Assembly: GCA_965250285.1 (NCBI GenBank) | Contig: OZ252299.1 | Location: 2,752,001-2,816,000, forward strand | Length of the DNA: 64,000 nt | Reading direction: 5' to 3' | Source: Myxococcota bacterium | GTDB lineage: Bacteria > Myxococcota_A > UBA9160 > UBA4427 | Part shown: piece by piece, positions 22,604 to 59,049 of the stretch | How the letters are laid out: every line of letters starts with the position of its first letter | Numbering within the stretch: the stretch's first letter is position 1 | Made by a program: the position numbers and the translations under genes | The notes under the pieces: model-generated | Database searches by the model: none | What the model was told of the DNA's origin: nothing | What the model saw: only the letters and a program-made list of their open reading frames with translations

Positions 22604-23004
22604 GGAGGTGGACGGGAGATCGCCGGCGGGCAGGCATCGCCCGCGGGAGGAAAGTCCGGGCTCCACAGGGCAGGGAAGTCGGTAACACCGACCCGGGGCG
22701 ACCCGAGGGAAAGCGCAACAGAAATCACACCGCCTAAGCGGGGGGCGACCCTCGCCGGCAAGGGTGAAATCGTGGGGTAAGAGCCCACGCGCGACAGCCG
22801 GGTGACCGGCGGCGAGGCAAGCCCTTCCCGGAGCAAGCTCGAATAGGGGTGCGGTCGAGAGCGGCCCGCTCGAGGGATCACGGTCCCCGGCACCCGGGTG
22901 AGAGCGCTCGAGCGGCGCGGCAACGCGTCGCCTAGACGAATGATCTTCGCTCGCTCGTCCTCTCGAGGGCGGGCGAGGACAGAACCCGGCTTACAGTCCA
23001 CATC
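22604..23004 (+). ncRNA. rnpB: RNase P RNA, bacterial type A
   Basis: GAGGAAAGTCCGGGCTC near 5' end, GAAAGCGCAACAGAAA, GGGTGAAA..GGGGTAAGAGC, ACAGAACCCGGCTTA near 3' end; GTGGAC/GTCCAC P1 pairing; TACGAT -10 at 22589. Confidence 0.97.
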
Positions 23005-23020
23005 GAAGCCTCGCTTCGAT
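23002..23020 (+). terminator. hairpin immediately 3' of rnpB
   Basis: ATCGAAGC-CTC-GCTTCGAT 8-bp stem; no U-tract, so could be a processing/stabilising stem instead. Confidence 0.35.
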
Positions 23021-47399: not shown

Positions 47400-47428
47400 T
47401 TGACGAGGGGCGAAGAAAAGACGAAAGT
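47400..47428 (+). promoter_or_regulatory. imuA promoter with embedded conserved 18-bp element
   Basis: TTGACG-17nt-GAAAGT-6nt-ATG; GGCGAAGAAAAGACGAAA at 47409-47426, matching the dnaE2 promoter. Confidence 0.7.
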
Positions 47429-47434
47429 CGATTC

Positions 47435-48484
47435 ATGCCCCCCGAGCCGCTCGAATCTTCGAGGGCGCGAGGGGCCGGTCCCCCCGTCTCGCGGGGCCCG
47501 TACGCTCGCGTACGCGCACCGCGCTCCATGCGCCCGAATTCGGGCGAAGTCGCCTCGATCTGGGCGAGCCAGGCCACCCCGTCGGCTCCCGAGCCCGAGA
47601 CGTCCCGGTCGGCACCGCATCGGCCCGAGCCCGCGCGCTCGACCGAGTCGTTGCCCGAAGAGCCGGTCGAGCACTCGGTCCAGGGAAGACCGGCCCGACT
47701 CGAGGCCCTGCTCACCGACCTCGGTCCCCGAGTTCGCAGAGGGGTCGAGCCTCGCCGATCGCCCGATCGGCTTCATCCGACCGGCCTCGTCGCTCTCGAC
47801 GAGTTGCTGCGCGGCGGCTTTCCGTCGGGTGCCATCACCGAGCTGTCGGGACCGGCATCGTCGGGTCGCACCGCCATCGCGCTGGCGTTGCTGGCCGAGA
47901 CCACCGAGGCCCACTGCGAGCTCGCCGCGCTCGTCGATGCGGCCGACGCCTTCGATCCCCCCTCGGCCGAGGCCGCAGGGGTCGATCTCGACCGGCTGCT
48001 CTGGGCCCGGCCCCGAGGCCCGCTCGAGGCCCTTCGCTGCGTCGAGCGCCTGATGGAGACGGGCGGGATCCCGCTCGTGCTGCTCGATCTCTCGCCCGGC
48101 TCTCCCGCCCTGGCGCACGCCTCGACGGCCAAGCCTGCGCCCTCGCTTCGCGCCGGCAGCCCGCCGCGCTCGGGGCAGCGGCGACGCAGCAAGGGACCAC
48201 GCCACCCGGCGCACACCCGCCCTGCCCTGCATCACTGGATCCGCCTGGCGCGACTCGCCGACGCCACGGGCACGGCGCTCGTCGTGCTCTCGCGCGAGCG
48301 CTGGACGGGCACCCAGGCCGCCGTCGCGCTCGAGGTGCGCGGTCTGCGAACCGAGACCGAGACGCCCTTCGATCCGATCGCCGGATGCATCGAGACCCGC
48401 GTCGCGCTGGTCCGCGCCCGCGGTCACGCACCCGACACCCCCATCTCACTCCGACTCGAGAGCGACCCCGCAGCCGACCCCTGA
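47435..48484 (+). CDS. imuA: ImuA-like RecA-fold mutasome accessory protein
   Basis: TGLVALDELLRGGFPSGAITELSGPASSGRT (degenerate Walker A), VDAADAFDP, GVDLDRLLW; directly upstream of imuB; start provisional. Confidence 0.8.
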   Translation: MPPEPLESSRARGAGPPVSRGPYARVRAPRSMRPNSGEVASIWASQATPSAPEPETSRSAPHRPEPARSTESLPEEPVEHSVQGRPARLEALLTDLGPRVRRGVEPRRSPDRLHPTGLVALDELLRGGFPSGAITELSGPASSGRTAIALALLAETTEAHCELAALVDAADAFDPPSAEAAGVDLDRLLWARPRGPLEALRCVERLMETGGIPLVLLDLSPGSPALAHASTAKPAPSLRAGSPPRSGQRRRSKGPRHPAHTRPALHHWIRLARLADATGTALVVLSRERWTGTQAAVALEVRGLRTETETPFDPIAGCIETRVALVRARGHAPDTPISLRLESDPAADP

Positions 48485-48543
48485 AGTCGACTCCGCTCCT
48501 TCCCCACCCCATCCCCCGCCCACCGGGCAGCCCCGAGCCCGCC

Positions 48544-50109
48544 ATGCCCCGTCTCCCCCCTCGCATCGCCTGCCTGCTCGTCCCCGATCTGCCGTTGCGG
48601 GCAGAGCTGCGCGCACACCCCGAGCTCGTCGGCGCCCCGCTCGTCATCGCCTCGAGCCGAGGTGCTCGGGCCGAAGTCATCGCTGCGTCGAGCGAGGCGC
48701 GCGCCCTCGGCGTCCGGCTGTGGAGCGGGCTGGCCCAGGCCCGATCGGTGGCGCCCGACGTCGTGGTGCGTGTCGCCTCACCCGCCCTCGAAACCGCGGC
48801 GCGCGAGGCCCTGCTCGATGCGGCGCTCTCATGCTCGCCCCGGGCCGAGCTCGCCCCCGTCGGCGCGGGCTTCTTCGTCGCCGAGGGCGCGGTGTTCGTC
48901 GACGCGCGCGGCACCGGTCGGCTCTTCGAGAGCGAGACGGGCTTCGCATCGGCGCTCGCCGCGCGGGCCGATGCGCTCGGACTGCCCGGCGTCGTCGGCA
49001 TCACGGGCCATCGCACCCTCTCGCTGCTCGTCGCGCGTCGACTCGCGAGAGATGCGAGCCCGCGCACGAAGAACGCCCACGAAGACGGGGCGATTCAGGT
49101 GCTGCACAGCGGACGCGAGTCGGCGTGGCTCGCGCCGCTGCCCGTCGATCTGCTCGACCCCGACGACCGGGTGGCCCAGGCGCTCACGCGCTTCGGTGTG
49201 CGGACCGTGCGCGATCTGTTGCGACTGCCCCGAAGCGGGCTCAATCGGCGACTCGGCCGGGAGGTCGAGACGCTCGTGCGCCGGGCGCGCGGTGAAGAGG
49301 CCGATCTGCCCCTGCCCGAGCCTACCCGCCGACTCGCCCAGGAGGCGATCGACCTCGAAGGCGCAGTGCACCGGCTCGAGCCCCTCGGCTTCGTGTTGCG
49401 CGGCCTCATCTCTCGGCTCTGCGAACGCCTGGCGGTGCGCGGCCTCGCCTGCGACCGGCTCGAGATCGAGCTCGGCCTCGAAGGCGGTGCGCGCGACGTT
49501 CGACACGTGACGAGCGCCGCGCCGACCCTCGACGTGCGCGTCTGGCTGCGGCTCACGATGCTCGCGTTCGAAGAGCATCCGCCCGAGGCGCCCGTCGAGC
49601 GGGTGCAGGTCGGCAGCGAGGGCCAGCCCCTGCCCCGGGATCAGCTCGATCTCTTTCGACCGGTCGGCCCCGATCCGACGACGCTCGATCGCACGCTCTC
49701 CGAGCTCGAAGCGATCTGCGGCGAAGGCCGGGTCGGCGCGCCGGTCGTGGCCGACACCCACCACCCGGCGGCGTTCGGCGTACGTCCCTTCGGCCCGCGT
49801 CCAGCGGGCGATGCGCGCAGCGGGCCGGGCGAGCAGCGCAAGGCGCGCCTCGCCGTGCGCGCGCTGCGTCCGCCGGTGGGCGCCGACGTCCGCATCGAGC
49901 GCGGCGAGCCCACCCATGTCCGCAGCGCCCTCGCCCAGGGGCACATCCTGAGCTGTGCCGGCCCCTGGCGTACGACGGGCAACTGGTGGAACGAGTCGAC
50001 CCGCTTTGCCGTAGATCACTACGACGTGTGCATCGAAGACGGCACCGTCGCCCGGCTCTGCTTCGACTGGGTGCGTCGGCGCTGGATGATCGATGGCGTG
50101 TACGACTGA
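48544..50109 (+). CDS. imuB: ImuB, inactive Y-family polymerase-like scaffold
   Basis: Y-family-like layout without catalytic acidic motifs, QLDLF clamp motif, C-terminal GPWR..GNWW...W.IDGVYD. Confidence 0.85.
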   Translation: MPRLPPRIACLLVPDLPLRAELRAHPELVGAPLVIASSRGARAEVIAASSEARALGVRLWSGLAQARSVAPDVVVRVASPALETAAREALLDAALSCSPRAELAPVGAGFFVAEGAVFVDARGTGRLFESETGFASALAARADALGLPGVVGITGHRTLSLLVARRLARDASPRTKNAHEDGAIQVLHSGRESAWLAPLPVDLLDPDDRVAQALTRFGVRTVRDLLRLPRSGLNRRLGREVETLVRRARGEEADLPLPEPTRRLAQEAIDLEGAVHRLEPLGFVLRGLISRLCERLAVRGLACDRLEIELGLEGGARDVRHVTSAAPTLDVRVWLRLTMLAFEEHPPEAPVERVQVGSEGQPLPRDQLDLFRPVGPDPTTLDRTLSELEAICGEGRVGAPVVADTHHPAAFGVRPFGPRPAGDARSGPGEQRKARLAVRALRPPVGADVRIERGEPTHVRSALAQGHILSCAGPWRTTGNWWNESTRFAVDHYDVCIEDGTVARLCFDWVRRRWMIDGVYD

Positions 50110-50614
50110 GGCCGACCCGGGGCCTTCGAAGAGAAGCGTGCTCGCCCTATCTGATTGCGACGCGCCAGATCGCAACCTGCCTGGTTTCACTACGCAAACC
50201 GAAGCGCACCCGCTCGGCTCACCGCTTCTGAGCCACGAAGACATCCCGCACGGCTTCGGGGTCGAGACAGTGAGACTGCACCGATCTGCCCGGGCGGGCC
50301 GCACGCCGCGCGTGCGTGGCCGTGCACGCCGGTCGCGGGCTGCACCCCCCAAGCCGCATCGGCACCGCGTGTCGTCCCCCTCGAAATTCATCGGTACGCA
50401 GCGGGATGGAGGGCGAACCGTCGCGAGCGGGGTAGACTCGACGCCGCGCGACGAGGGGGGATCCAGTCGCGGAACCGTGAACGACACGCTTGCCCCGCAC
50501 CGGTCCCGACCCGGATCACGCGCGGACGCCGCGAGCCCAACGCACCGCGATCCCGAGACACTCGACCCACACGCGCAGCCGTACGCGAAGAAACGACTGG
50601 AGGACGCCTCCCCG

Positions 50615-51211
50615 ATGAGCTCGCCGAATTTCCTGCCGCGGCCCGACCACCGCCTCGCCTTCTTCAAGGGCTTTCTCGACAGGCCCAAGGAGGTCGGATC
50701 GATCATCCCGAGCTCGCGCTTCATGGAGCGCCGCATCGTGAAGACGCTCGATCTCTCGGAGGCGAAGCTGGTCGTCGAGCTGGGCCCGGGCACCGGCGGC
50801 ACGACCAAGGCGGTGCTGCGCGCGCTGGCCCCCGACGCGAAGCTGCTCGCCATCGAGATCAACCGCCACTTCGTCGACCTGCTCTCGCGCCACGACGACC
50901 CGCGCCTGCTCGTGCACGAGGGCAGCGCCGCCGAAATTCCGGCGATCCTCGGCGAGCACGGGCTCGAGAAGCCCGACGTGATCTTCTCGGGCATTCCGTT
51001 CTCGACGATGCCGCGCAGCCTCGGGAAGGCGATCCTGTCGTCGGCCCGCGACGCGCTCGCCCCGGGCGGCCGCTTCGTCGCCTATCAGTTCCGCGACCGG
51101 GTGCATACGCTCGGCGTCGAGGTGTTCGGCCGCGCCAACCGACAGATCGAGCTGCTCAACGTGCCACCGATGCGCGTGTGGCGCTGGGACGTCGGCACCC
51201 CCGAGCGCTGA
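50615..51211 (+). CDS. class I SAM-dependent methyltransferase, PmtA-like phospholipid N-methyltransferase
   Basis: VGSIIPSSRF, VVELGPGTG, IFSGIPF, FVAYQF, NVPP; GTG 50477 is a possible earlier start. Confidence 0.8.
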   Translation: MSSPNFLPRPDHRLAFFKGFLDRPKEVGSIIPSSRFMERRIVKTLDLSEAKLVVELGPGTGGTTKAVLRALAPDAKLLAIEINRHFVDLLSRHDDPRLLVHEGSAAEIPAILGEHGLEKPDVIFSGIPFSTMPRSLGKAILSSARDALAPGGRFVAYQFRDRVHTLGVEVFGRANRQIELLNVPPMRVWRWDVGTPER

Positions 51212-51221
51212 CGCGCTCGCC

Positions 51222-51962
51222 TCAGCGCACGGCGCGCACCACCAGCGACACCGCCGACAGCGCGAGCACCCAGAGCACGATCTTCTCGAAGCGACGCTGA
51301 TCGAAGCGGGCGCGCAGGCGCTCGCCGAGCGGGACCGCGGCGAGGACGAGCGGGATCGCGGCGACGCCGATCCACAGCCGGGGACCGACGACCCGCCCCT
51401 CGACGGCGAGCGCCGCGAGCTGCGCGGCGCTCGCGACGAAGAACACGACACTGACCGCGAACACGAACGCACCCGCCGTCAGCCGGTACGCGTGCAGCCA
51501 CGCGGCGACCGGTGGCCCGCAGATGCCCACCGCGCCCTGCATCACGCCCGCGAAGAGGCCGACCGGCACTGCGCCGATGCGCGTCAGCTCGGGCGACAGC
51601 GAGCCTTCGGGTCGCAGCACGGCGTACGCGACGTAGGCGACGACGGTGCCAGCCAGCGCGAGGAGCAGCCAGAACTCGTCGACCGTCAGCAGCAGCTGCG
51701 TGCCGAAGAACGCCCCGATCACCCCGGCGACGGCGAGCGTCGGCAGGTCGCGGGTGAGCGGGGCCTCGAAGCGAACACGCCAGGCGAGCACGAGGTTCAT
51801 CAGCGTGTTGGGGAGCGCCACCACGATGGCCGCGTCCTCGACCGTGGCGAAGAGCGAGATCACCGGGATCGCGACCAGCGGAAAGCCCATCCCGGTCACG
51901 GCCTTCACCGCGACGCCGATGGCCATGGCGATGACACACACGACGATTTCGAAGCCGCTCAT
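51222..51962 (-). CDS. sulfite exporter TauE/SafE family membrane protein
   Basis: VKAVTGMGFPLVAIP, G..QGAVGICGPP, hydrophobic throughout. Confidence 0.82.
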   Translation of the reverse strand: MSGFEIVVCVIAMAIGVAVKAVTGMGFPLVAIPVISLFATVEDAAIVVALPNTLMNLVLAWRVRFEAPLTRDLPTLAVAGVIGAFFGTQLLLTVDEFWLLLALAGTVVAYVAYAVLRPEGSLSPELTRIGAVPVGLFAGVMQGAVGICGPPVAAWLHAYRLTAGAFVFAVSVVFFVASAAQLAALAVEGRVVGPRLWIGVAAIPLVLAAVPLGERLRARFDQRRFEKIVLWVLALSAVSLVVRAVR

Positions 51963-51970
51963 CAGGTCGC

Positions 51971-53347
51971 TCAGTCTGCCTCGTCGTCGCGCACCCCGCC
52001 GCGACCGGGTGCCGATCGCGGGCGGCGCGCCGAGGCGGTCGCCCCCGCGCCCTCCGCGTCGTCTTCGAACGTGTCGCCGTGCTTGTGCTGCATCGACAGC
52101 CCGGCGCGCACCGCGTCGCCCTGACTCGCGCGCACGATGGCGCGGCGGCCGAACCGATCGACCACCGCATCGAGCGCCTCGTTCAGCCTCGCGCGGCGCG
52201 CCTGCTCGGGCGAAGGCCCGAAGAGCCCGAGCTGCGCGCGGTCGCTCGGCGCAAGACCGGTGACCCCCACACCGATCAGCCGCACGGGCTCGGGCAGCCG
52301 CTCGGCCCGCAGCAGCGCATGGGCGGCCTGCGCGATGACCTCGCCATCCCGGGTCGGCTCGTCGAGCGTCGTCCGGCGCGTGTGCAGCGGGTAGCCACGC
52401 GGCCCGGGGCGCCGCCGTGTCGCGAGCCGCCACTTGAGCACCACCGTGCGCGCGACGAGCCCCGAGCGCCGCAGTCGCCGAGCCACGCTCTCGGCATGGG
52501 TGAGGATCGTCGCTTCGAGCAGCTCTCGGTCGGCGACGTCGCGCTCGAACGTGTTCTCCTCGCTGATCGACTTGGCGGCGCGCTCCGACTCGACCGACGC
52601 GTTCGCATCGGTCGCCTCCTCACCGCGCGCCATGCGGCGCAGACGGTGCGCGTCGTCGCCGAACGCCGCCTCGAGCAGCTCGCGGGGTGCGTCGGCGAGC
52701 TGTCCAATCGTCTCGAAGCCCCGGTCGCGGATCCTTCGTTCGGCGACCGGCCCGACGCCCCACAGCTTGCGCACCGGCAGCGGCGCCAGGAAGTCGCGGA
52801 CCGCCTCGGGCTCGATGACGAGCAGGCCGTCGGGCTTCGCCAGGGCGCTCGCGATCTTGGCCACGCGCTTCACCGGCGCGACGCCCACCGACACAGCGAG
52901 GCCGGTCTCCTCGCGCACCTGTGCCCGCAGCCGGGCCGCGACGTCGGCGGGGGCACCGAGGAGTCGCTCGGTGCCGGTCCAATCGAGGAACGCCTCGTCG
53001 AGCGACAGACCTTCGACGCGGGGCGAGAACGTGCGGAAGACGTCGAAGATGCGCTTCGACTCGCGCGCGTAGAGGGCCATGTTGCCGGGCACGAACACGA
53101 GGTCGGGGCAGAGGCGCTTCGCCTCGATCGAGGGCATCGCCGAGTGCACGCCAAAGACGCGCGCTTCGTAGCTCGCCGCCGACACCACGCCACGCGGGCC
53201 ACCGCCGCCGACGGCGATCGGGCGCCCGCGCAGCTCGGGGTGATCACGCTGCTCGACCGAGGCGTAGAACGCATCCATGTCGGCGTGCGCGATACAGCGC
53301 ACGGGCGAAGGAGCCGACGTGGAGGCGGGGCGATCCGGCGGGGGCAT
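51971..53347 (-). CDS. dinB: DNA polymerase IV
   Basis: HADMDAFYASVE, SAASYEARVFGV, LSLDEAF, AKIAS..KPDG, LWGVG, VRLIGV, QLGLF clamp motif. Confidence 0.95.
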   Translation of the reverse strand: MPPPDRPASTSAPSPVRCIAHADMDAFYASVEQRDHPELRGRPIAVGGGGPRGVVSAASYEARVFGVHSAMPSIEAKRLCPDLVFVPGNMALYARESKRIFDVFRTFSPRVEGLSLDEAFLDWTGTERLLGAPADVAARLRAQVREETGLAVSVGVAPVKRVAKIASALAKPDGLLVIEPEAVRDFLAPLPVRKLWGVGPVAERRIRDRGFETIGQLADAPRELLEAAFGDDAHRLRRMARGEEATDANASVESERAAKSISEENTFERDVADRELLEATILTHAESVARRLRRSGLVARTVVLKWRLATRRRPGPRGYPLHTRRTTLDEPTRDGEVIAQAAHALLRAERLPEPVRLIGVGVTGLAPSDRAQLGLFGPSPEQARRARLNEALDAVVDRFGRRAIVRASQGDAVRAGLSMQHKHGDTFEDDAEGAGATASARRPRSAPGRGGVRDDEAD

Positions 53348-53367
53348 GCAGGGGACCTCGTTGGGCG

Positions 53368-53405
53368 ACGATACCCTTGAGAAGAGGCGAACAAAAGACG
53401 AAAAT
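53368..53405. promoter_or_regulatory. divergent dinB/dnaE2 promoter region with conserved 18-bp element
   Basis: TTGAGA(53377)-17nt-GAAAAT(53400)-6nt-ATG for dnaE2; GGCGAACAAAAGACGAAA at 53386-53403; TATCGT -10 candidate on minus strand at 53368-53373 for dinB. Confidence 0.7.
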
Positions 53406-53411
53406 GGCGGA

Positions 53412-56400
53412 ATGCCCCCCGACCGCCCCCCGCGCCACCATGCCGCCCCCGACGACTACATCGAGCTGCGGGCGCGCAGCGCGTTCTCGTTTCTCGAAGG
53501 CAGCGCCCAGCCCGAAGACCTCGCCGAGCGCGCCGCCGAGCTGGGCTACCCGGCGCTGGCGCTCGCCGATCGCCACGGCGTCTCGGGCGCGCCGCGTTTT
53601 CACAAGGCGACCCGGGCAGCGGGCGTCCGCGGCCTCGTCGGCGCCGAGCTCTCGGTGGCGCGCCCGGGTGGACCGAGCGACGACCTGCTGCTGCTCGTCG
53701 AATCGCCGGCGGGCTGGCGGCGACTGTGTCGACTGATCACGGCGGGCCAGGCGGGCCGGCCGAAGGGCGAGTGTCAGGTCGACTGGCGCGACGTCGCCGA
53801 GCATGCGGGCGACTGGACCGTACTGGTGCACGGCGATGCGCGGCTGCGCCCCGAGCTCTTCGACCGCCTGCGCGAGACCTTCGGCGACCCGCGCGATGCC
53901 CGGGGCGATGCCCGCGAGCGCGTGTGGGTCGACGTGTCGCGACCGCTCGATCGCCGGGCCGAGCGCCACATGCGCCGCGCGGCCGACCTGGCCAGCGCGC
54001 ATGGCGTGCCGATCGTGGCCACGGGGGACGTGCGCTGCGCCCGGCCCGAGGGTCGACCGCTGCTCGACGCACTGACCTGCCTCTACCACAAGACCACGCT
54101 CGACCGGGCCGGTCGACGGCTGCTGCCCAACGGTGAGCACTACCTGCTCGCGCGCGAGTCGATGGCCGAGCGCTTCGCCGATCATCCCGAGTGGGTGCGC
54201 GCCACCCGGGCGATCGCCGAGCGCTGCGGCTTCACCCTCGAGAACCTCGGCTACCGGTTCCCCGAGTTTCCCCTCGCTCCGGGCGAGACCCAGCAGGGGC
54301 GGCTCGAGGCGCTGACCTGGCAGGGCGCGCGGGAGCGCTACGGCACCCCGCTGCCCGCCCGGGTCAGGCAGCAGATCGAGCACGAGCTGACGGTGATCGG
54401 CCGACTCGAGCTCGCCGGCTACTTCTTGATCGTCCACGACATCGCGCTCTTCGCAAAGCAGTCGAAGATTCTCTGCCAAGGTCGCGGTTCAGCAGCGAAT
54501 AGCGCCGTCTGTTACTCGCTCGGGATCACCGCGGTCGACCCGATCGGCATGGAGCTGCTCTTCGAGCGATTCCTCTCGGATGAGCGCGGTGAGTGGCCCG
54601 ACATCGATCTCGACCTGCCCTCGGGCGATCAGCGCGAGCGGGTGATCCAGTACGTCTTCAAGAAGTACGCGACCGGGGGCTCGGCGATGACCGCCAATGT
54701 CATCACCTACCGCCTGAAGATGGCCCTGCGCGAGATGGGCAAGGTGGTGGGGCTCGACGCCGACACCCTCGACCGGCTCTCGAAGACGGTCGGGCGCCTC
54801 GAGGCCGAGGACACCGTGGGCCAGATTCGCGAGCGCATGCGCGGGGTGGGGCTCGACGATGCGGCGCCAAGGGTGAAGCAACTTCTCGACCTCATCCTGC
54901 AAGTGCAAGGATTGCCTCGCCATCTTGGTCAACACTCGGGGGGCGTGGTCATCGCGGCCGGGCGCCTCGACGAGGTCGTGCCCATCGAGCCGGCGAGCAT
55001 GGACGACCGCCGCATCGTGCAGTGGGACAAGGACGACTGCGCCGATCTCGGCATCATCAAGATCGACCTGCTCGGGCTCGGCATGCTGCAGGCCCTCGAA
55101 GAGACGATCCCCCTGGTGCGACGGCACGAGGGCGTGGCCCTCGACCTCGCGAAGCTGCCCCCCGACGACCCGGCGACCTACGACATGATCTGCGACGCCG
55201 ACACGGTCGGGGTGTTCCAGATCGAGAGCCGGGCCCAGATGGCCACCCTGCCCCGCATGAAGCCGCGGCACTTCTACGACCTGGTGGTCGAGATCGCGAT
55301 CATCCGACCCGGCCCGATCGTGGGCCAGATGGTGCACCCCTATCTCAATCGCCGGGCCGGGCGCGAGCCGGTCGAAGTGCCCCACGAGAGCCTGCGGCCG
55401 ATCCTCGCTCGCACACTCGGGGTGCCGATCTTTCAGGAGCAGCTGCTGCGGGTGGCCATGACCGCAGCGGGCTTCACCGGCGGCGAGGCCGAAGAGCTGC
55501 GCCGGGCCATGGGCTTCAAACGCTCGATCGAGCGGATGGAGGCGATCGAGGCCCGGCTGCGCGCCGGCATGACGCGCAACGGCCTCGAGCCCGGGGCCCA
55601 GGACGAGGTCGTCCGGCACATCACGTCGTTCGCGCTCTACGGGTTCCCCGAGTCGCACTCGGCCTCGTTCGCCCTGATCGCCTATGCCTCCTGCTACCTC
55701 AAGCGTCATCACCCGGCGGCCTTCCTCGTCGGCCTGCTGAACGCCTGGCCGATGGGCTTCTACAACCCGGCCACCCTCGTGCAGGACGCCCAGCGGCACG
55801 GGGTCGAGGTGCGACCGATCGACGTCACCCGCTCGACCTGGGGGTCGAGCCTCGAGCCGGGCCACCCGGCCGCGGCACCGCGGCCGATGCGGCACGGCCC
55901 GGCCCACGCCGGGCGACCCGCCGCCCGCATCGGGCTGCGCTTCGTGCACGGTCTGCGCGAAGAGACGGCCCTGCGCCTCGAGCACGAGCGGCGCGCGCGC
56001 CCCTTCGGCGATCTCTCCGATCTCGTGAAGCGCGTCGGCTTCGTCGGCGACGAGCTCGACGCGTTGGCCGAGGCGGGCGCCCTGGCGAGCCTGCCCGGCG
56101 CCTCGAACGAGCGCCGGGCCGCGCTCTGGCAGGTGGCGGGGATCGAGCGCGACACCCGGTCGCTCTTCGCGGGGCAGACCGCCGCCGATCACGGCCGCGC
56201 CGAGGAGGCGGGCCTTGCCCCGATGGACGCGATCGAGACGACGCTCGCCGACTATCGGCGCTCGGGGCTGACGACCGGCCCCCAGCTTCTCGCGCACTTC
56301 CGGGCCGAGCTGCGCGAGCGCGGGATCCTCGCCGCAGCCGACCTGCGCCACGTGCCGAACGGGCGCTGGGTGCGTACGGCGGGACACGTCATCGTGCGGC

Positions 56401-56639
56401 AGCGGCCGGGCTCGGCGAAGGGTTTCGTCTTTCTCACCCTCGAGGACGAGACGGGGCTCAGCAACGCCGTGGTGACGCCCCCCGTCTTCGACCGCTTCCG
56501 CGTGCCGATGCACGCGCATGCGCTGCTCGAGGTCGCGGGCCCGATCCAGAACGTCGACAACGTGATCCATGTGCGGCTCACCGAGCTCAAGCCCCTCGAG
56601 CTGCACGCCTCGATGCCGGCATCGCGCAGCTACCGCTGA
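53412..56639 (+). CDS. dnaE2: error-prone C-family DNA polymerase DnaE2 (ImuC)
   Basis: SAFSFLEG PHP start, GRGSAANSAVCY, WPDIDLD, PRHLGQHSGG, VFQIESRAQM, YGFPESHSASF, WPMGFY, short C-terminus ending SRSYR (SRDFH-type tail). Confidence 0.95.
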   Translation: MPPDRPPRHHAAPDDYIELRARSAFSFLEGSAQPEDLAERAAELGYPALALADRHGVSGAPRFHKATRAAGVRGLVGAELSVARPGGPSDDLLLLVESPAGWRRLCRLITAGQAGRPKGECQVDWRDVAEHAGDWTVLVHGDARLRPELFDRLRETFGDPRDARGDARERVWVDVSRPLDRRAERHMRRAADLASAHGVPIVATGDVRCARPEGRPLLDALTCLYHKTTLDRAGRRLLPNGEHYLLARESMAERFADHPEWVRATRAIAERCGFTLENLGYRFPEFPLAPGETQQGRLEALTWQGARERYGTPLPARVRQQIEHELTVIGRLELAGYFLIVHDIALFAKQSKILCQGRGSAANSAVCYSLGITAVDPIGMELLFERFLSDERGEWPDIDLDLPSGDQRERVIQYVFKKYATGGSAMTANVITYRLKMALREMGKVVGLDADTLDRLSKTVGRLEAEDTVGQIRERMRGVGLDDAAPRVKQLLDLILQVQGLPRHLGQHSGGVVIAAGRLDEVVPIEPASMDDRRIVQWDKDDCADLGIIKIDLLGLGMLQALEETIPLVRRHEGVALDLAKLPPDDPATYDMICDADTVGVFQIESRAQMATLPRMKPRHFYDLVVEIAIIRPGPIVGQMVHPYLNRRAGREPVEVPHESLRPILARTLGVPIFQEQLLRVAMTAAGFTGGEAEELRRAMGFKRSIERMEAIEARLRAGMTRNGLEPGAQDEVVRHITSFALYGFPESHSASFALIAYASCYLKRHHPAAFLVGLLNAWPMGFYNPATLVQDAQRHGVEVRPIDVTRSTWGSSLEPGHPAAAPRPMRHGPAHAGRPAARIGLRFVHGLREETALRLEHERRARPFGDLSDLVKRVGFVGDELDALAEAGALASLPGASNERRAALWQVAGIERDTRSLFAGQTAADHGRAEEAGLAPMDAIETTLADYRRSGLTTGPQLLAHFRAELRERGILAAADLRHVPNGRWVRTAGHVIVRQRPGSAKGFVFLTLEDETGLSNAVVTPPVFDRFRVPMHAHALLEVAGPIQNVDNVIHVRLTELKPLELHASMPASRSYR

Positions 56640-56845
56640 CGATCCCGACCGATGCGATCGCGACGCGTGTGATGAGCCAAAGGCGGCAGCGAGCCGAGGC
56701 CGCCGCGCCGGCTCCGACCGACGTGTGCATCGATCGCACAGGCGTCGGCTTCGATGCGTCACCCAACCGTGCATGCGGGTCACTTGCATGCAGAAAATCG
56801 CGCGTACTCATGCGCAAACGATTCCATTCGAAGAGCGGGCCAGAT

Positions 56846-57955
56846 ATGTTCCCGCTCGCCGACCCCAGCCCCGGAGCAATCCCCCCCTTGCCCCGCACTG
56901 CCCACGCCCAAACGGCCGTCCGCGGCCCGCTCGACGCGCTCTCGGATCGCGAGCTGCTCGCTCTGCGGCTCTGCGATCTCGACGTGTCGCTCGAAGGCAG
57001 CTGGGTCGCGGATCTGATCGATCAGGTGCTCGGCGAGCTGGCCGCCACGGGCCTGCGCCTTCGGCCGCACTTCTGGCTGTCGGAGGAGTGGTTCTCGCCC
57101 GACGCGGTGCCCGGCGTCGCCGTGCCCTTCTACCTGGCGCACCCGCGGCTCGTGCGGCTCGAGCGCAGACAGATGCTCGAAGCCGAGGGCGCGACGCGAG
57201 AGAGCTGTCTCAAGCTGCTGCGCCATGAGGTCGGTCACGCCGTGCAGCACGCCTACCGTCTGCATCGGCGCCCGAGCTGGCGCGCGAAGTTCGGCTCCTC
57301 GTCGACGCCGTACCCCGACTTCTATCGGCCCGACCCGACCAGCCGCCAGCACGTGCTGCACCTCGACTACTGGTACGCCCAGGCCCACCCCGACGAGGAC
57401 TTCGCCGAGACCTTCGCCGTGTGGCTCACGCCGGGCTCGCGCTGGCGGCAGGCCTACCGGGGCTGGGCGGCGCTCGAGAAGCTCGAATACGTCGACGAGC
57501 TCGTCCGCACCCTCGAAGGGGTCGCGCCGCCGGTGCGCAGCCGCGCGCGGCCCGAGCACCTGCCCCGGCTGCGGCGCACGCTCGCCGACTACTACGCCGA
57601 GAAGCGCGAACGCTTCGAGGGCAATGGCGACGAGGTCTGGGACGAAGACCTGATGCGGCTCTTCAGCAAGCCGGAGGGCTCTGCGAAGGGCATGGCTGCG
57701 GACCGGCCGCGGGGTGAGTCGGCGGCGGCGTTCCTGCACCGGGCGCGGGGGCGCGTGCGCCGCCGAGTGGCCCGCTGCACCGCCCGGCACGAGTACGCCA
57801 TCGATCTGGTGCTGCGCGAGATGACGGCGCGCTGCCGCGAGCTGGGGCTGCGCGCGACGGCGCCCGCCGATCAGCTCGAGCGCGACCTCGCGATCCTGGT
57901 CGCCGCGCGCGGCGCCGAGTACGTCTCGTGGCGACGGGAGTGGCACGCGCTCTAG
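56846..57955 (+). CDS. putative zinc-binding metallopeptidase
   Basis: HEVGH (HExxH) followed by YAQAHPDEDFAETFAVW; start provisional. Confidence 0.78.
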   Translation: MFPLADPSPGAIPPLPRTAHAQTAVRGPLDALSDRELLALRLCDLDVSLEGSWVADLIDQVLGELAATGLRLRPHFWLSEEWFSPDAVPGVAVPFYLAHPRLVRLERRQMLEAEGATRESCLKLLRHEVGHAVQHAYRLHRRPSWRAKFGSSSTPYPDFYRPDPTSRQHVLHLDYWYAQAHPDEDFAETFAVWLTPGSRWRQAYRGWAALEKLEYVDELVRTLEGVAPPVRSRARPEHLPRLRRTLADYYAEKRERFEGNGDEVWDEDLMRLFSKPEGSAKGMAADRPRGESAAAFLHRARGRVRRRVARCTARHEYAIDLVLREMTARCRELGLRATAPADQLERDLAILVAARGAEYVSWRREWHAL

Positions 57956-58044
57956 AGCGCCATGCGCGGGCTCGCTTCACTCGGCCGGGCCCGGGCTGCC
58001 CGCCGGGGAGCGCGGACCGCCGCACTTCGCCACCATCCCACATC

Positions 58045-59049
58045 ATGAAGAAGCGGCGCGTCCTCGTCCTCACCCACGAAGACCTGGTGGTGCCCGACTC
58101 GCGCCAGGGCCTGACCGACCAGCAGAAGCACGAGATCAAGTGCGAGTGGGACGTCGTGACGACGCTGCGCGCCGGCGGCCACGACGTGCGCCAGCTCGGC
58201 GTCAGCCACGATCTGCTTCCGATCCGGCACACCGTCGAAGACTGGCGCCCCCACGTGGTCTTCAACCTGCTCGAGGAGTTTCAGGAAGAGGCGATCTACG
58301 ACCACAACGTCGTCGCCTACCTGCAGCTGCTGAAAGCGGCCTACACGGGCTGCGGCCCGCGCGGCCTCGTGCTCACCCGCGACAAGTCGCTCGCGAAGAA
58401 GCTCGTCGCCTACCACCGGGTGCGGGTGCCGCGCTTCTTCGTCGCGCGTCGGGGGCGCAAGCTGCGGGCGGTGAAGGGCCTGCGCGCCCCGCTGATCGTG
58501 AAGAGCCTGGTCGAGGAGGCCTCGACGGCCATCGCCCAGGCATCGGTGGTGCACACCGAGGAGAAGCTCGCTGAACGCGTCCGCTTCGTGCACGAGCACG
58601 TCGAGACCGACGCGATCGTCGAAGAATTCATCGAGGGGCGGGAGATCTACGTCGCCGTGCTGGGCAACGAGCGGCTCCAGGTGCTGCCGCCTCAGGAGCT
58701 GGTCATCGGCGACCTCGGCGAAGGAGAGCGGCTGATCGCCACCGAGAAGGTCAAACACGACCCGGCCTACCAGAAGAAGCGCAAGATCCGGCTTCGGCCC
58801 GCCAAGCTCGAGCCCGATCAGCTGCGCACGCTCGAGCGCACCTCGCGGCGGGTGTACAAGACGCTCGAGCTGCGAGGCTACGCGCGGATCGACTTTCGGC
58901 TCTCGCCCGAAGGCGAGTTCTACTTTCTCGAAGCCAATCCGAACCCCGAGCTGGCCAAGGGCGAAGAGGTCGCGAGCGCCGCCAAACAGGTGGGCCTCGA
59001 GTATCCCGATCTGCTCGAGAAGATCCTCCGGCTCGGGATGCGCACCTGA
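58045..59049 (+). CDS. ATP-grasp ligase, D-Ala-D-Ala ligase-like but atypical
   Basis: VVFNLLE, YTGCG...DKSLAK, PLIVKS, EEFIEGRE, GYARIDFR, FLEANPNP. Confidence 0.85.
   Translation: MKKRRVLVLTHEDLVVPDSRQGLTDQQKHEIKCEWDVVTTLRAGGHDVRQLGVSHDLLPIRHTVEDWRPHVVFNLLEEFQEEAIYDHNVVAYLQLLKAAYTGCGPRGLVLTRDKSLAKKLVAYHRVRVPRFFVARRGRKLRAVKGLRAPLIVKSLVEEASTAIAQASVVHTEEKLAERVRFVHEHVETDAIVEEFIEGREIYVAVLGNERLQVLPPQELVIGDLGEGERLIATEKVKHDPAYQKKRKIRLRPAKLEPDQLRTLERTSRRVYKTLELRGYARIDFRLSPEGEFYFLEANPNPELAKGEEVASAAKQVGLEYPDLLEKILRLGMRT

Follow-up and report, generated by a model that had tools for sequence, protein, structure and literature searches.

The 64-kb window analysed in this work (64,000 nucleotides of contig OZ252299.1, assembly GCA_965250285.1, positions 2,752,001 to 2,816,000 of the forward strand, from a Myxococcota bacterium) carries the polymerase-related genes imuA, imuB, dnaE2 and dinB. 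An 18-bp element, built as a direct repeat of CGAA with seven intervening bases (CGAA-N7-CGAA), is present in the promoters of imuA and dnaE2, and its probable role as a binding site of the SOS repressor LexA is the subject of this text. The imuA gene (47435..48484, + strand) encodes a RecA-like protein matching the ImuA model with an E value of 1e-12, under the cut-off, and imuB (48544..50109, + strand, start codon chosen in this analysis) a protein with an IMS domain of the Y-family fold. Both names rest on domain and position, and the DMDAFY motif was not found in the first 52 residues of the imuB product. The product of dnaE2 (53412..56639, + strand), an error-prone paralogue of the alpha subunit of DNA polymerase III, is above the NCBIfam cut-off for the error-prone polymerase, and that of dinB (51971..53347, - strand), which has its intergenic site in common with the divergent dnaE2, is above the cut-offs for DNA polymerase IV.

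Upstream of imuA a predicted -35 hexamer, TTGACG (47400-47405, + strand), is followed by the element (47409-47426), by the predicted -10 hexamer GAAAGT (47423-47428) and, six nucleotides further, by the ATG at 47435. The dnaE2 promoter is composed of TTGAGA (53377-53382, + strand), the element (53386-53403), GAAAAT (53400-53405) and, again after six nucleotides, the ATG at 53412. Counted to the end of the -10, the two direct-repeat operators occupy 47409..47428 and 53386..53405 on the + strand, with the CGAA-N7-CGAA cores at 47411-47425 and 53388-53402. In both cases a hexamer starting with TTGA is followed by a 17-base spacer filled by the element, whose second half-site runs into the -10. 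The two 18-bp elements are identical in 17 of 18 bases. With up to three mismatches allowed the window has no further match, while shuffled windows gave a mean of 0.04 matches and reached two in 0 of 100 shuffles. These two sites had been pointed out in an initial annotation, and their coordinates, identity, equal offset and extension from the spacer into the -10 were all confirmed in the letters of the window. The coding sequences also start alike, with ATG CCC CC; many imuA and dnaE2 genes of the order (loci L036-L094) begin with ATG or GTG followed by CCC CC (Met-Pro-Pro).

The same annotation had the dnaE2 copy overlapping the -35 of the divergent dinB. As far as position is concerned this holds, provided that the candidate TATCGT (53368..53373, read from 53373 to 53368 on the - strand), which is found also in the same-genus genome G001, is the dinB -10. 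The match to a -35 at the dnaE2 site is however poor, and the promoter scan of the dinB-dnaE2 intergenic DNA listed no minus-strand promoter there.

Conservation of the element and the predicted regulon

According to a preprint (10.64898/2026.07.10.737566) UBA6930 and UBA4427 are placed in the class Vahlivitia, formerly UBA9160, and the class of our genome is likely UBA9160/Vahlivitia. The searches for related loci covered 41 genomes each, and the best 30 loci were taken. The exact core was found upstream of lexA in 27/29, of dnaE2 in 28/29 and of imuA in 29/29 relatives, against a background of 0.02 per 300 nt in the rest of these loci. Held-out lexA promoters, four of them belonging to another order of the class, carried it in 14/14 cases, and 28/30 lexA promoters of the order had a site of at least 16 bits. 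The distance between the half-sites is exactly seven in 27 to 29 of 29 relatives, with a spacer of six or eight in 0 to 2 of 30. The boxes in the lexA promoters and this rigid spacer support the initial proposal of an SOS-type operator with a direct repeat at one-turn spacing.

In the relatives the consensus is approximately (A)GGCGAAAAnAAGRCGAAART, in which the half-site RCGAAART recurs after 11 bp. The imuA and dnaE2 promoters of the order (n=29 each, own genome included) use the tail of the second half-site as the -10, with GAAA[A/G]T in 21/29 at each gene. A -35 hexamer with at least 5/6 matches to TTGACA and a spacer of 16-18 is present in 23/29 scored imuA promoters. An in-frame start lies exactly six nucleotides after the -10 in 20/29 imuA and 18/29 dnaE2 promoters, and because of this short distance both mRNAs, including those of the window, are predicted to be leaderless. 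In the lexA promoters of the order the box runs in reverse and occupies the spacer straight after TTGACT, and a second box is often found downstream. At lexA, at a splB-like radical-SAM gene and at the recA operon its orientation is opposite to that at imuA and dnaE2 and the offsets differ. Such variation among promoters fits a repressor site, not a sigma factor element.

The genome of the window is a single contig of 6.25 Mb with 68.6% G+C. It has one copy of lexA (G000:C1:174230-174844, a gene with PF01726 and PF00717), whose promoter contains two CGAA-N7-CGAA copies, one per strand. A site matrix built on 104 sites of relatives, with own-genome sites left out, found seven sites of at least 25 bits in this genome and none in the reversed genome; four of the seven belong to lexA, imuA, dnaE2 and the splB-like gene. 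A degenerate site of 18.6 bits lies upstream of the pgpA-cinA-recA operon, ruvC has one of 16.5 bits and lhr one of 9.4 bits. In about 400 random upstream regions every score stayed under 16 bits. In the held-out test on relatives the exact core precedes the splB-like gene in 17/25 and a site of at least 16 bits in 19/25, locus L314, with a faulty upstream window, being entered as a miss. The recA operon has a site of at least 18.5 bits in 15/20 (20 of 40 relatives, mostly ones with long upstream contigs); 14 of these 15 are found ahead of pgpA/cinA and directly precede a hexamer starting with TTG, and 9/15 have one imperfect half-site. A count of the pattern across 61 genomes of the class exceeded the reversed control in most, not all, of them, these counts being made without link to genes.

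The initial annotation had taken the element to co-control three polymerase-related units. The relatives do not bear this out as a conserved design: a box within 300 nt of dinB is present in 3/29 of them, in all three cases the one of an adjoining divergent dnaE2, and dinB was rejected as a conserved third unit. The candidacy of ruvC also had to be dropped. The regulon predicted from the scans is small. Besides lexA, imuAB and dnaE2 it takes in the recA operon, the splB-like gene and an orphan promoter next to tRNA-Lys.

This last promoter (G000:C1:2111979-2112040; loci L352 and L397) has several boxes and is directed away from tRNA-Lys(UUU). Within 450 nt of this tRNA a box of at least 20 bits was present in 10/14 such loci, own included. 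Downstream of it no conserved same-strand open reading frame and no conserved body in the alignment were found, and Rfam gave tRNA-overlapping matches only. A common same-strand reading frame was rejected, since it ends antisense to a gene which by its motifs looks endonuclease/phosphatase-like. Candidate products are an SOS-controlled small RNA, a small protein or an antisense transcript.

Two further genes of the region have no box. Between imuB and dinB/dnaE2 are found a lipid N-methyltransferase-like gene (50615..51211, + strand; PmtA/OlsG-like, under the cut-offs) and, downstream of dinB, a gene for a TauE/SafE-family membrane protein (51222..51962, - strand). Directly after dnaE2, at 56801-59049, follow a Peptidase_Mx-family gene and a D-Ala-D-Ala-ligase-like ATP-grasp gene, and a class A RNase P RNA is located at 22604-23009 of the window. 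In several relatives (L037-L064) a small gene, by eye similar to a response-regulator receiver, is divergent from dnaE2 and replaces or precedes dinB. The lexA gene was matched in two pieces in G007 (L007, G007:C108), G023 (G023:C16) and L149, by frameshift or assembly error.

LexA as the probable binder

The LexA proteins of the order are intact, with the cleavage site Ala89-Gly90, Ser125 and Lys163 in 30/30, and recognition helix 3 reads (S)VATVHKH in our genome. The comparison was extended to Nitrospinota and Acidobacteriota, the phyla to which one genome titled Nitrospinaceae and one titled Acidobacteriaceae belong. In Nitrospinota the core is upstream of lexA in 27/29 and a site of at least 16 bits in 26/29; in Acidobacteriota the core is present in 16/30 (best 30 of 70 matches, with the unpublished genome G201 counted as a miss). 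The element can therefore not be called lineage-specific, as it had been at first. Other Myxococcota (best 30 of 147 Pfam matches) have the core upstream of lexA in 1/30 and a site of at least 16 bits in 0/30; their LexA has the helix STNGVNDHL, and GTTCAG lies upstream of lexA in 26/30.

Within Acidobacteriota, G201 left out, a site of at least 16 bits accompanies 21/24 LexAs whose helix 3 has Thr, and 1/5 of those with N-A or N-G. In the promoters of these five (L215, L217, L221, L222, L225) TG-initial repeats, TGAA or TGTA, replace CGAA at an equal period. The operator letters change where the LexA recognition helix changes. Two of the five have an E. coli-like SPNAA helix. In Nitrospinota (L243-L255) Gln in place of Lys44 goes with C before the distal CGAA in 7/12 best sites, vs 1/15 with Lys, the Gln group being one clade.

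The LexA tree comprised 75 rows, including 12/30 of the own order, 29 acidobacterial, 10/29 of Nitrospinota and 14/30 of other Myxococcota. The LexA of the order nests among acidobacterial LexAs, in a clade with 5 acidobacterial rows (100/97), and a single clade of this order's LexA with that of other Myxococcota was rejected (p-AU 1.65e-8). As the tree is midpoint-rooted, it leaves the donor lineage unassigned.

From the position of the sites over sigma-70-like promoters, their conservation, their presence before lexA, the intact LexA and the co-variation with helix 3, we consider it very probable that the CGAA half-sites 11 bp apart are the operator of the single LexA of this bacterium, which would keep the imuA-imuB and dnaE2 promoters shut. 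Of the two binders first proposed, LexA or another damage regulator, LexA is thus the likely one and the other is disfavoured.

Several observations speak against the LexA operator. The relatives share ancestry and their counts are non-independent samples, and in the tree the five N-A/N-G LexAs fall into a single group with weak support (85/81), so that the co-variation of box and helix may be a single event. No site was found at the splB-like gene in 6/25 and at the recA operon in 4/20 relatives, and the ruvC site is confined to our genome, with 0/29 in relatives. A scan for the element at lexA, recA, uvrA and ssb had been suggested at the outset; in our genome it was successful for lexA, with two copies, and for the recA operon, with the degenerate one, but no box was found in the 500 nt upstream of the three uvrA genes, uvrB, ssb or recN, some of which are possibly inside operons. 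The three uvrA paralogues, all above the family cut-off, are located at G000:C1:5683215-5685971, 4877842-4880601 and 2053217-2055901. Strong sites occur also at non-repair genes: C1:3117766 (33.8 bits), near AurF-like and HupE-like genes, is weakened in the same-genus G001 (19.1 bits), and C1:5822481 (28.1 bits), examined in our genome only, is near a DUF4136 gene. Both are candidates for chance or recently gained sites.

Among the alternatives, another damage regulator might bind the site and control lexA as well, of either the WYL type (as PafBC/DriD) or the XRE type (as DdiA of Myxococcus xanthus). There are two WYL-domain regulator genes in the genome (G000:C1:1019803-1021017 and 3347989-3348813), which may also point to a second, LexA-independent damage pathway for the uvr genes. 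Activators of the WYL type have a binding site fixed in position and orientation with respect to the promoter, while the present site, lying over the -10 or the spacer in both orientations and at several offsets, is ill-suited to an activator. Precedent comes from M. xanthus, where DdiA activates dnaE2 by a direct or an indirect route (PMC12288472) and the direct LexA repression described is of recA2, lexA and pafB-pafC-cyaA only (PMC9705874). Of these two regulator types the search of the genome covered WYL; since no box was found at either WYL gene, their starts being approximate, and the box follows LexA helix 3 through the three phyla compared, we regard such a regulator as improbable. The element could alternatively be a promoter part read by an alternative sigma factor, as its fixed position at imuA and dnaE2 and its last bases forming the -10 would suggest. 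The changed orientation and offsets at lexA, the splB-like gene and the recA operon, together with the TTGAC-like -35, make this very improbable. That the likeness of the two window promoters, with their equal offsets and common first codons, stems from a recent local duplication or from chance A-rich sequence is barely credible: the bare core is indeed not enriched genome-wide (554 matches at spacer 7 vs about 470-590 at most other spacers, an uninformative count), but the flanks are identical in only 22/60 and 24/60 positions, which disfavours a recent duplication, both sites are kept across the families of the order while spacers vary, unlinked SOS genes carry the box as well, and the counts at lexA, dnaE2 and imuA contradict it.

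With LexA as the repressor, a dimer would contact the two half-sites from the same side of the DNA helix, one DNA-binding domain being turned about the flexible linker; in E. coli LexA the linker is described as no hindrance to movement of the DNA-binding domain (PMC3159453). In the SOS scheme LexA over a promoter excludes RNA polymerase until its RecA-stimulated self-cleavage (PMC9578287). RNA polymerase would here be blocked by the covered spacer and -10 at imuA, dnaE2 and the splB-like gene; at the lexA promoter LexA would cover the spacer, and at pgpA-cinA-recA the DNA immediately before the -35. The weak half-site frequent at the recA operon may give weaker control and allow basal RecA. 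Upon DNA damage, RecA filaments would lead to self-cleavage of LexA and to joint release of the promoters, and the separated halves of the ImuA-ImuB-DnaE2 mutasome would be made simultaneously, likely from leaderless mRNAs. In this genome only, dinB may possibly be affected through the adjoining dnaE2 site.

Relation to known LexA boxes

Direct-repeat LexA boxes are known from Alphaproteobacteria, with GTTC-N7-GTTC (PMC9578287 Table 1, PMC12700426, PMC3323433, PMC8565304). The direct repeat, the 11-bp period and the GAA core are found in both boxes, but the alphaproteobacterial half-site is GAAC, vs CGAA(A) here, and a C follows the second CGAA in 0/104 sites. GAAC-N7-GAAC was present in 0/30 lexA, 1/30 dnaE2 and 0/30 imuA promoters of the order, and helix 3 is KSGIHRL in one alphaproteobacterial LexA examined, vs VATVHKH here. 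The Gram-positive box, CGAAC-N4-GTTCG (PMC9578287 Table 1), has a half-site that likewise starts with CGAA, and helix 3 of Bacillus LexA also has T-V-H-x-H; that box is however palindromic and not a direct repeat, and GAAC-N4-GTTC was present in 0/90 promoters. In M. xanthus, of the same phylum in the genome collection and likewise with imuAB and dnaE2 in separate units, the box is CTRHAMRYBYGTTCAGS (PMC9705874). Its core GTTCAG was found in 0/30 lexA, 1/30 dnaE2 and 1/30 imuA promoters of our order. The initial statement that the box differs from those of E. coli, Gram-positive bacteria, M. xanthus and Alphaproteobacteria is borne out.

In Balneolaeota the LexA motif is given as the direct repeat TTACACATATTTTWTACATA (PMC7739468), and its regulon is likewise small, taking in lexA, recA, translesion polymerases and a radical-SAM protein. 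The likeness lies in the direct repeat and in this regulon, while its letters (TACA) differ and are nearer to the variant of the acidobacterial LexAs with the N-A helix. The same paper describes the direct-repeat form as having arisen several times and cites motifs for Verrucomicrobia, Patescibacteria and Acidobacterium.

Our literature search found no paper giving CGAA-N7-CGAA as a LexA motif, the comparison being made without Erill 2016, Sanchez-Osuna 2017, Mazon 2006 and Sanchez-Alberola 2015. The box is new for this class and, within the literature searched, for Nitrospinota, and it belongs to the known direct-repeat kind of LexA operator. In 30 acidobacterial lexA promoters, among which Acidobacterium capsulatum itself was not identified, GTTC-N7-GTTC was present in none and TTCG-N7-TTCG in 16. 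The LexA box of A. capsulatum was reportedly found by Mazon et al. (2006) to be GTTC-N7-GTTC, also a direct repeat with an 11-bp period, and from the counts the acidobacterial core looks one base off this motif. A LexA motif of Patescibacteria, linked to the LexA of Acidobacteria, is said to have been described by Sanchez-Osuna, Barbe and Erill in 2017; if its letters are identical to those here, the box has already been published for another group.

A broader reading, which we put forward tentatively and think somewhat more likely wrong than right, would join these observations. CGAA-N7-CGAA would be one widespread, under-described family of LexA operators, spanning this class, Nitrospinota and much of Acidobacteriota, in which the Gram-positive half-site was made a direct repeat. 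The lexA gene would have been taken from Acidobacteriota and the split mutasome rewired under it, on leaderless promoters with an operator-built -10; the helix-3 variants, A-T with CG and N-A with TG, would be a recognition code, and the tRNA-Lys orphan promoter would drive an SOS RNA or small protein.

The switch itself is of a familiar type and does not represent a new kind of regulation. The direct LexA control of imuAB and dnaE2 predicted here contrasts with the model myxobacterium, where neither is among the listed direct LexA targets (PMC9705874). The natural pairs of LexA and operator variants make both the binding of a two-fold LexA dimer to a direct repeat and the residues which set the bases testable, and the motif may be used to read the DNA-damage regulons of a whole uncultured class and of Nitrospinota.

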